Of a DNA stretch of 64,000 bases, positions 37,680 to 37,975 are shown in pieces; positions within the stretch are counted from its first letter, which is position 1, and each line of letters opens with the position of its first letter. Under the pieces are notes generated by a model. The model was not told where the DNA came from and did no database searches. It saw only the letters and a list, made by a program, of their open reading frames with translations. Origin of the DNA: Eledone cirrhosa. Its lineage: Eukaryota. Position numbers and translations under genes: made by a program. The stretch covers positions 20,832,001 to 20,896,000 of the forward strand of contig OZ024747.1 in assembly GCA_964016885.1 (NCBI GenBank). Reading direction: 5' to 3'.

Positions 37680-37975
37680 TATATACATAAATGTATGTAT
37701 AGTATATTTGGCAATATACCGTATGTTTAATTAAAAACATTTAGAAGACCATACGCTATCAGTTTTAAAGTAGTGACTATGTCACTTAGTTCTTTTCGGC
37801 GAAAGAAGGGAGATAAGCTGACAGTCTGTTTCACGCTGGTTGGCGTTCATCAGAGCCACGTACTCCCCTGCTTCCGCCGAAAATTATAGAATCTGGATTC
37901 TTATAGAATTTCAGTAATAATCAGGAGCTGATTATACAGAGCGATTGCCGGTCCAGCAAAAATTAGGTATTAGGA
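37680..37975 (-). mobile_element. ~300-bp hammerhead-bearing non-coding repeat unit (retrozyme/PLE-pLTR-like)
   Basis: Reverse complement aligns along its length with 41666-41943; its 3' end runs into (TA)n. Confidence 0.75.
37793..37883 (-). ncRNA. Canonical type I hammerhead ribozyme with extended stem I
   Basis: UUUUCGGCGGAAGCAGGGGAGUACGUGGCU-CUGAUGA-ACGC(CAACCA)GCGU-GAAA-CAG(A)CUG-UC^AGCUUAUCUCCCUUCUUUCGCCGAAAA. The core and GUC site are complete, and stem I has ~24 bp with an internal loop. Confidence 0.88.

Follow-up and report, generated by a model that had tools for sequence, protein, structure and literature searches.

The question raised by this locus is whether the hammerhead-like motif on its minus strand belongs to a ribozyme and, if so, which kind of repeat carries it and how that repeat was spread. 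The 64,000-nt stretch of Eledone cirrhosa DNA analyzed here (the window) contains two related repeats: copy A at 37679-37983, which bears the motif, and copy B at 41461-41943. A sequence-only reading had proposed an intact type I hammerhead in copy A, within a short retrozyme family, and remnants of Penelope-like reverse transcriptases (RTs) in the same window.

Catalytic Core and Predicted Fold

A type I hammerhead with a long helix I is recognized at 37883-37793 on the minus strand by sequence reading, Rfam alignment and folding. All three boxes of the core are readable on this strand, between 37853 and 37820. The box CUGAUGA (37853-37847) leads into helix II (37846-37833), in which ACGC (37846-37843) and GCGU (37836-37833) form four base pairs around the 6-nt loop CAACCA. 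The GAAA box follows at 37832-37829, and helix III (37829-37821) is very short: three pairs (A-U, C-G and A-U) closed by a GAC triloop. The cleavage triplet GUC lies at 37822-37820, which puts C17 at 37820 and the predicted cut between 37820 and 37819. Proximal helix I pairs GUGGCU (37859-37854) with AGCUUA (37819-37814). It is separated by an internal loop, UAC/U (UAC bulge at 37862-37860), from a distal helix whose 5' strand includes GGGGAG (37868-37863) and which extends to 37883/37793. On the 3' strand, AGCUUA, a single U and CUCCCU succeed each other, onward to 37793. The elements of a type I core (CUGANGA, GAAA and a UH triplet) are all present, in the usual three-helix layout with helices II and III capped and helix I long and open. 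The core, the 4-bp stem II, the short stem III, the looped stem I and the cut site are those described by the sequence-only reading.

Only four of the six pairs of proximal helix I are standard in copy A; a strict hammerhead descriptor that needs at least five of six misses this motif. With respect to the commonest version of its subfamily (A, see below), copy A has a single difference, an A for C at 37814, by which pair 2.6-1.6 changes from G-C to G.A. Folding of the 91-nt segment yields -42.7 kcal/mol, whereas shuffled sequences give -23.9 ± 3.3 kcal/mol (z -5.75), and none of 200 shuffles was as good. In the minimum-free-energy fold, distal helix I and helix II are formed, and part of the core pairs with helix III instead of building the active junction. 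The bare core pattern has no significance by itself: it is matched once in the 64-kb window for 0.41 matches expected, and at least once in 32 of 100 shuffles.

In the Rfam search suggested by the earlier reading, a cmscan of the 64-kb window returned no match at gathering scores. In a 501-nt search, the best match was Hammerhead_HH9 (RF02275, clan CL00010), with 25.7 bits and an E value of 3.5e-4 for a gathering score of 52, and the alignment keeps the UAC bulge, the core with the 6 nt that precede it, and both loops in register with the consensus. The highest Rfam score of any family member in the genome is 35.8 bits. The score stays below the gathering threshold, and support for the ribozyme comes instead from covariation within the family. 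The motif of copy A is complete, and it is predicted to be self-cleaving.

A Solo Unit, Probably Inserted in a TA Repeat

Copy A is a solo 305-nt copy (u1-u305; 37983-37679, minus strand) of a unit of approximately 319 nt. Homology to 29 other loci sets its limits: it stops at 37983 on one side and, TA repeats excepted, at 37679 on the other. In tandem copies, a linker of ~14 nt (CGCTATTTCAG, plus or minus a few bases) leads on into u1; hence the unit measures ~319 nt and is circularly continuous. Copy A has a GC content of 37%, and its longest open frame is 52 aa. The traits by which retrozymes are recognized (150-450 bp, low GC, non-coding, with a type I hammerhead) are all found in this unit.

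At its 3' end, copy A passes into a (TA)n microsatellite of 62.5 copies, identified by TRF at 37583-37707, which is likely the target site of the insertion. Copy A forms a single arm, and the locus has one ribozyme. With only one ribozyme, no unit-length RNA can be released from copy A, and a read-through transcript would be cut once (37820/37819). It is hence a product of the family and not a source, a dead-end monomer. The earlier reading of copy A as a retrozyme is supported as far as the sequence traits go, but it overlooked that the locus holds a solo monomer.

The 5' end of copy A adjoins a SINE-like fragment (37984-38130, plus strand) with a tRNA T-arm-like box (GGGAGTTCAAATCCC). Diverged copies of this fragment, 70-76% identical, are found near 168-249, 640-755, 26301-26413, 26947-27022, 27157-27224, 31638-31742 and 33011-33123. 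Two other arrays are seen in the window. A repeat with a 9-nt base (GTAGCAACA-like) covers about 15 kb at 2144-17467, with a strong excess of A over T and open frames in several frames of both strands; it is a large simple satellite or, possibly, a coding low-complexity array. A tandem array at 32074-32696 has a 29-nt period, about 21 copies and higher-order periods of 89 and 147 nt.

Copy B (41461-41943) lies in the opposite orientation to copy A, on the plus strand in the sense direction. Alignment to copy A and to genomic relatives identifies it as an older partial tandem of 1.5 units, belonging to a sister subfamily, B. An upstream partial unit comes first, then a linker, then a unit that spans roughly 41657-41943. 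Copy B matches copy A at 80% identity across 296 nt and at 90% across 126 nt; the identity of its relatives in the genome, which measure ~305-325 nt, is 83-88%. The full unit has a deletion of about 11 nt between 41787 and 41788, by which the core box was lost together with the 5' strand of helix II; most relatives have CUUGAUAA at this gap (10 of 12 in the alignment). The upstream hammerhead remnant likewise has no core. Judged from these remnants, the ribozyme of copy B is dead. The recurrence noted in the sequence-only reading is real, but it is inverted and devoid of any hammerhead core, and its 310-bp period results from a period of ~320 nt less the deletion of ~11 nt.

A Young and Dispersed Family

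The genome-wide copy search proposed earlier reveals a dispersed family. In the 3.0-Gb genome, 3,245 first-look candidates were retrieved with the unit; 40 were scored, the best of them 95-97% identical. The exact 34-nt catalytic segment occurs in 156 copies, while its reversed control occurs in none. The strict core pattern is intact in 48 of 59 sampled hammerhead segments, the 59 being those left after removal of six reverse-strand self-matches of the palindromic helix I from an initial 65. Among the differences between copies, many are C/T or G/A substitutions in CG dinucleotides, the pattern expected of decaying repeats. The repeat family of copy A is young, abundant and non-coding. A look-up of sequencing runs returned the stretch as contigs in three runs of one study, of a kind that is not stated; no RNA run was listed.

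Next to subfamily A, the genome contains the sister subfamilies A2, B and C. Subfamily B, which includes copy B, is about 80% identical to A. Subfamily C, 72-74% identical to A, forms arrays of at least 10 units with alternating periods of ~304 and ~316 nt. One stretch of subfamily C extends over at least 21 kb with many hammerheads (G000:C2:207697254-207718715; L102, L109-L114), a long array that could be a source locus. A unit flanked by two ribozymes occurs neither at the copy A locus nor at that of copy B. Within the family it is provided by L023 (2.2 units), L060 (2.3 units) and the C arrays of at least 10 units. Most insertions of subfamily A have a single ribozyme, and a few sampled arms have two (e.g., L023, L056, L065 and L060).

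Conservation of the Fold between Subfamilies

Compensatory changes were sought in 15 sequences of subfamilies A, A2 and C, 14 of them distinct; L018, L087 and L095 were excluded, as the regular expression had picked other motifs there. The hammerhead structure pairs 91.4% of the cells in this set; shuffles reach 82.2 ± 1.2% (none of 500 as high), and sliding the partners leaves 41-55%. Covariation, too, scores above the level of shuffles (0.364 versus 0.199; again 0 of 500). Changes on both sides are seen in 8 of the 20 pairs. In helix II, these include 10.1/11.1 (A-U in A, G-C in C), 10.3/11.3 (G-C to U-A) and 10.4/11.4 (C-G to U-A). In helix I, pair 2.1/1.1 changes from U-A to C-G and pair 2.6/1.6 from G-C to U-A. 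The core itself is concerned: C3-G8 in A and A2 is replaced by U3-A8 in C and, also, in B. A second parse that includes subfamily B (22 sequences) is in agreement and adds 2.2/1.2, changed from C-G to U-A.

Comparison of the aligned subfamilies thus shows that the hammerhead fold has been under selection between A, A2 and C. This covariation stems from few lineage splits, hence from few events rather than many independent ones, all of which preserve the fold. At 10.1/11.1, A2 has a U.U and B an A.A mismatch, so that some subfamilies may be inactive. A natural covariation to U3-A8 is also reported, in the available text of PMC4209133, for Penelope hammerheads of Schistosoma.

Reverse Transcriptases in the Window and in the Genome

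Penelope-like elements, expected next to retrozymes in the same genome, are indeed abundant. A genome-wide GIY-YIG search returned 10,596 first-look candidates, and each of the 150 that were scored exceeded the cut-off. Eight long Penelope open reading frames (ORFs), from four families, all contain RVT_1, and six of the eight have a C-terminal GIY-YIG domain according to hmmscan.

The Penelope-like remnants announced for the window itself were not found. Two of the window frames scanned carry an RT, and both are of the LINE type. The first is an intact ORF of 1,174 aa (47004-50528, plus strand) with RVT_1 and zf-RVT domains, the best structure matches of which are R2 and LINE-1 ORF2p. The second, 1.4 kb downstream, is a fragment of 420 aa (51884-53146, plus strand), 47% identical to the first and broken by a microsatellite encoding (TYIH)n. 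None of the 150 ORFs scanned in the window has a GIY-YIG domain, and tblastn with the eight Penelope ORFs matched neither the window nor the 1.5 kb around each of 29 other copies. The earlier claim of a short retrozyme family is upheld in its main part: the family is dispersed, non-coding and hammerhead-bearing, with all sequence-level traits matching, in a genome rich in Penelope-like elements. The part concerning their remnants in the window is not supported.

Architecture of the Insertions

The shape of the insertions was established on 54 non-redundant loci with 71 arms. L051, L055, L063, L068 and L080 were removed as the same places as L023, L013, L019, L026 and L027, respectively, and the layout of L021 equals that of L020. 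The 5' ends of the 71 arms are scattered from u1 to u279. More than one unit is contained in 47 arms, with a maximum of 729 nt and at most 2.3 units. The 3' ends, on the contrary, are concentrated: 62 of 71 lie at u290 or later. In 40 of these, the end is at u290-311 and leads into TA repeats; in the other 22, it is at u312 or beyond. In 15 of the 22, a tail of ~30 nt is recognizable, in which the linker is followed by the opening ~16 nt of another unit. In 35 of 71 arms, a (TA)n tract of at least five repeats begins no more than 45 nt from the 3' end. Seventeen of the 54 loci are two-armed, and in all 17, the arms stand head-to-head with their 3' ends outward; in the majority, the tail is present on one arm and absent from the other.

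According to the available text of Craig et al. 2021 (PMC8557442), the hallmarks of Penelope-like elements are partial tandems in which the upstream copy is 5'-truncated, a neighboring inverted copy that is 5'-truncated as well, a tail of 30-40 bp that is often confined to one end, and a bias toward TA microsatellites. The family insertions appear built in the same manner, and it is likely that Penelope machinery copied them.

A run-off of reverse transcription at the ribozyme-cut 5' end was also considered. The first 30 loci were suggestive, with 16 of 17 upstream partials beginning 3' of the cut. This reading was rejected on a second sample of 30 junction-bearing loci, in which many 5' ends lie past the cut (u44-u143), so that there is no hard stop. 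As the arms cross the cleavage site and their 3' ends are away from the cut, the template must have been continuous there, either as a ligated circle or as an uncut multimer.

Proposed Route of Propagation

Copy A is probably a solo, recent, non-autonomous and non-coding hammerhead repeat, i.e., an animal non-LTR retrozyme, put into the (TA)n tract by a Penelope-like RT/endonuclease. This reading draws on the observed motif, family, fold-keeping covariation, insertion shape and abundance of Penelope elements; cleavage, circles and the mobilizing enzyme would complete it as follows. Loci with at least two tandem units would be transcribed, and the hammerheads would cut after GUC, the short and nearly palindromic helix III being possibly paired between two units. 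Cleavage would yield RNAs of ~319 nt with 5'-OH and 2',3'-cyclic phosphate ends, and a cellular ligase of the RtcB type could close them into circles. A Penelope enzyme would then nick a TA repeat and prime at a constant position close to the junction of units, with ends near u303 or 16 nt inside the following unit. The RNA would be copied for more than one turn, with stops at variable points. A second cDNA would often start from the opposite side of the break, giving rise to head-to-head arms.

A stronger version can be put forward tentatively, as a possibility that we hold to be somewhat less probable than its negation: the insertions would be traces of Penelope enzymes that circled a ribozyme-made RNA more than once, from both sides of a TA break, and catalysis would have been selected through the swap from C3-G8 to U3-A8. 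The traces in question are the arms longer than a unit, the clustering of 3' ends at two sites separated by about 30 nt, and the head-to-head arrangement of all 17 two-armed loci.

The most serious alternative keeps the same family and the same Penelope-type integration and assumes a linear template, a read-through transcript of a tandem array, with a hammerhead that merely trims transcripts or is a passenger. The subfamily C arrays of at least 10 units could yield such long transcripts, the insertions span the cleavage site uncut with 3' ends that are not at the cut, and Penelope clades without hammerheads still proliferate, according to the available text of PMC8557442. Against it, the sampled insertions of subfamily A do not exceed 2.3 units even though the subfamily is young, and 47 of 71 arms are still longer than one unit. 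With a linear template, 5' truncation should shorten the copies in each generation, unless a few long arrays were the sole sources. The compensatory changes, moreover, indicate that the ribozyme fold was kept. We regard the linear template as unlikely, with enough in its favor to be kept in mind. A circular template is favored because a young family with insertions of mostly 1.2-1.6 units keeps producing arms longer than one unit.

Relation to Autonomous Penelope Elements

Alternatively, copy A might be a solo pseudo-LTR or a terminal fragment of an autonomous Penelope-like element. Penelope pseudo-LTRs bear hammerheads, and Xenopus retrozymes are described as sister to pseudo-LTRs in the available text of a preprint (10.64898/2026.07.22.740005). 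The genome, furthermore, has many Penelope families, four of which were sampled. The unit is circularly continuous through its 14-nt linker, which speaks against a terminal fragment, and Penelope coding similarity was found neither in the window nor at the 29 other copy loci. The sequence-only reading had named a unit confined to the terminal repeats of a coding Penelope-like element as the finding that would speak against a retrozyme; no such case occurs at any sampled locus, and the unit was not found as a terminal repeat flanking an ORF with RT and GIY-YIG in the window or at 29 other copy loci.

A partner family was also searched for among the Penelope elements themselves. Neither blastn of the unit nor a profile of 94 units against 20 Penelope loci revealed a Penelope end, at the 3' side or elsewhere, that resembles the unit. 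The matches of the unit in those 20 loci are two separate retrozyme insertions (L032 and L044) and a weak antisense match (L036, E value 7e-4). The one Penelope family of which the 3' region was inspected (L046, L047 and L050) has a hammerhead of its own, of a different and minimal type, about 385-410 nt past the end of the ORF. It was detected on the minus strand with the strict descriptor (L046:3836, L047:4119 and L050:3802) and consists of CUGAAGA, helix II UUGC/GCAU, GAAA, a palindromic GUAC helix III and a UU cut site. Two of the three copies of this family end in TA-rich repeats. Considering these results, we find it very improbable that copy A derives from a pseudo-LTR.

An Rfam scan of seven Penelope or related loci (E value up to 1) was dominated by matches of TA repeats to microRNA models, with no hammerhead among the matches listed. 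Other hammerhead-like motifs, belonging to different sequence families, are present at L018:2361-2452 and L049:103 on the minus strand and at L048:685, L050:7986 and L041:25 on the plus strand; one of them has a long helix II, GUCCCAC/GUGGGAC. Their sequences suggest that several ribozyme-bearing repeat families exist side by side in the genome.

That the repeat is a common satellite multiplied by unequal crossing-over, or that the hammerhead-like motif arose by chance, was already disfavored and deserves practically no credence. Arrays do exist and the loose core pattern turns up in shuffles, but the copies sampled are spread over many contigs; their 5' truncation varies, their 3' ends cluster at two sites, and about half of the arms have TA repeats beside them. 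Both the fold energy and the compensatory covariation go against chance.

Comparison with Known Hammerhead Repeats

HH9 is a conserved intronic ribozyme of amniotes. The copy A motif has its best score with the Rfam model of this ribozyme and is in register with it, but 25.7 bits fall well short of the 52 required at gathering, so that it is not classed as HH9.

With the hammerheads of Penelope pseudo-LTRs, as presented in the available text of Cervera and de la Pena 2014 (PMC4209133) and of PMC8557442, the copy A family shares the insertion shape, the TA bias and the U3-A8 variant. The two differ in the ribozyme: the Penelope type is minimal (with a GUAC helix III in this genome), whereas that of copy A is canonical, with a loop-bearing helix I. 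The copy A unit, moreover, lacks an ORF, and its sequence does not resemble the sampled Penelope ends.

The literature on cephalopod hammerheads yielded one relevant item, the 235 Hammerhead_1 matches mentioned in the available text of a squid genome paper (PMC6962438). On the basis of its sequence, the copy A family is new within the known class of animal non-LTR retrozymes; the supplements of PMC7229834 or of the 2026 preprint may list related families. In the portions of these two sources at hand (PMC7229834; 10.64898/2026.07.22.740005), animal retrozymes are tied to Penelope-like elements by co-occurrence and sequence kinship, and the mobilizing step is not shown. Copy A alone, a dead-end monomer, adds little here. 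Its family, being young, keeps the details of insertion, and its subfamilies are natural compensatory mutants of the ribozyme, so that the proposed route from self-cleavage through a circle to Penelope-type reverse transcription becomes testable.

Metazoan non-LTR retrozymes are the closest known system. As far as the available text describes them (Cervera and de la Pena 2020, PMC7229834; Li, Clavereau and Pollet 2026 preprint), they share with the copy A family a canonical type I hammerhead in a low-GC, non-coding unit of ~300 nt, tandems that range from partial dimers to arrays, thousands of copies and the presence of Penelope-like elements alongside. The copy A locus, in comparison, is a lone monomer. 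The family differs further in its detailed Penelope footprints, namely head-to-head arms, a one-end tail of ~30 nt and TA targets, and in the core pair C3-G8, which has been swapped for U3-A8 in sister subfamilies of copy A.
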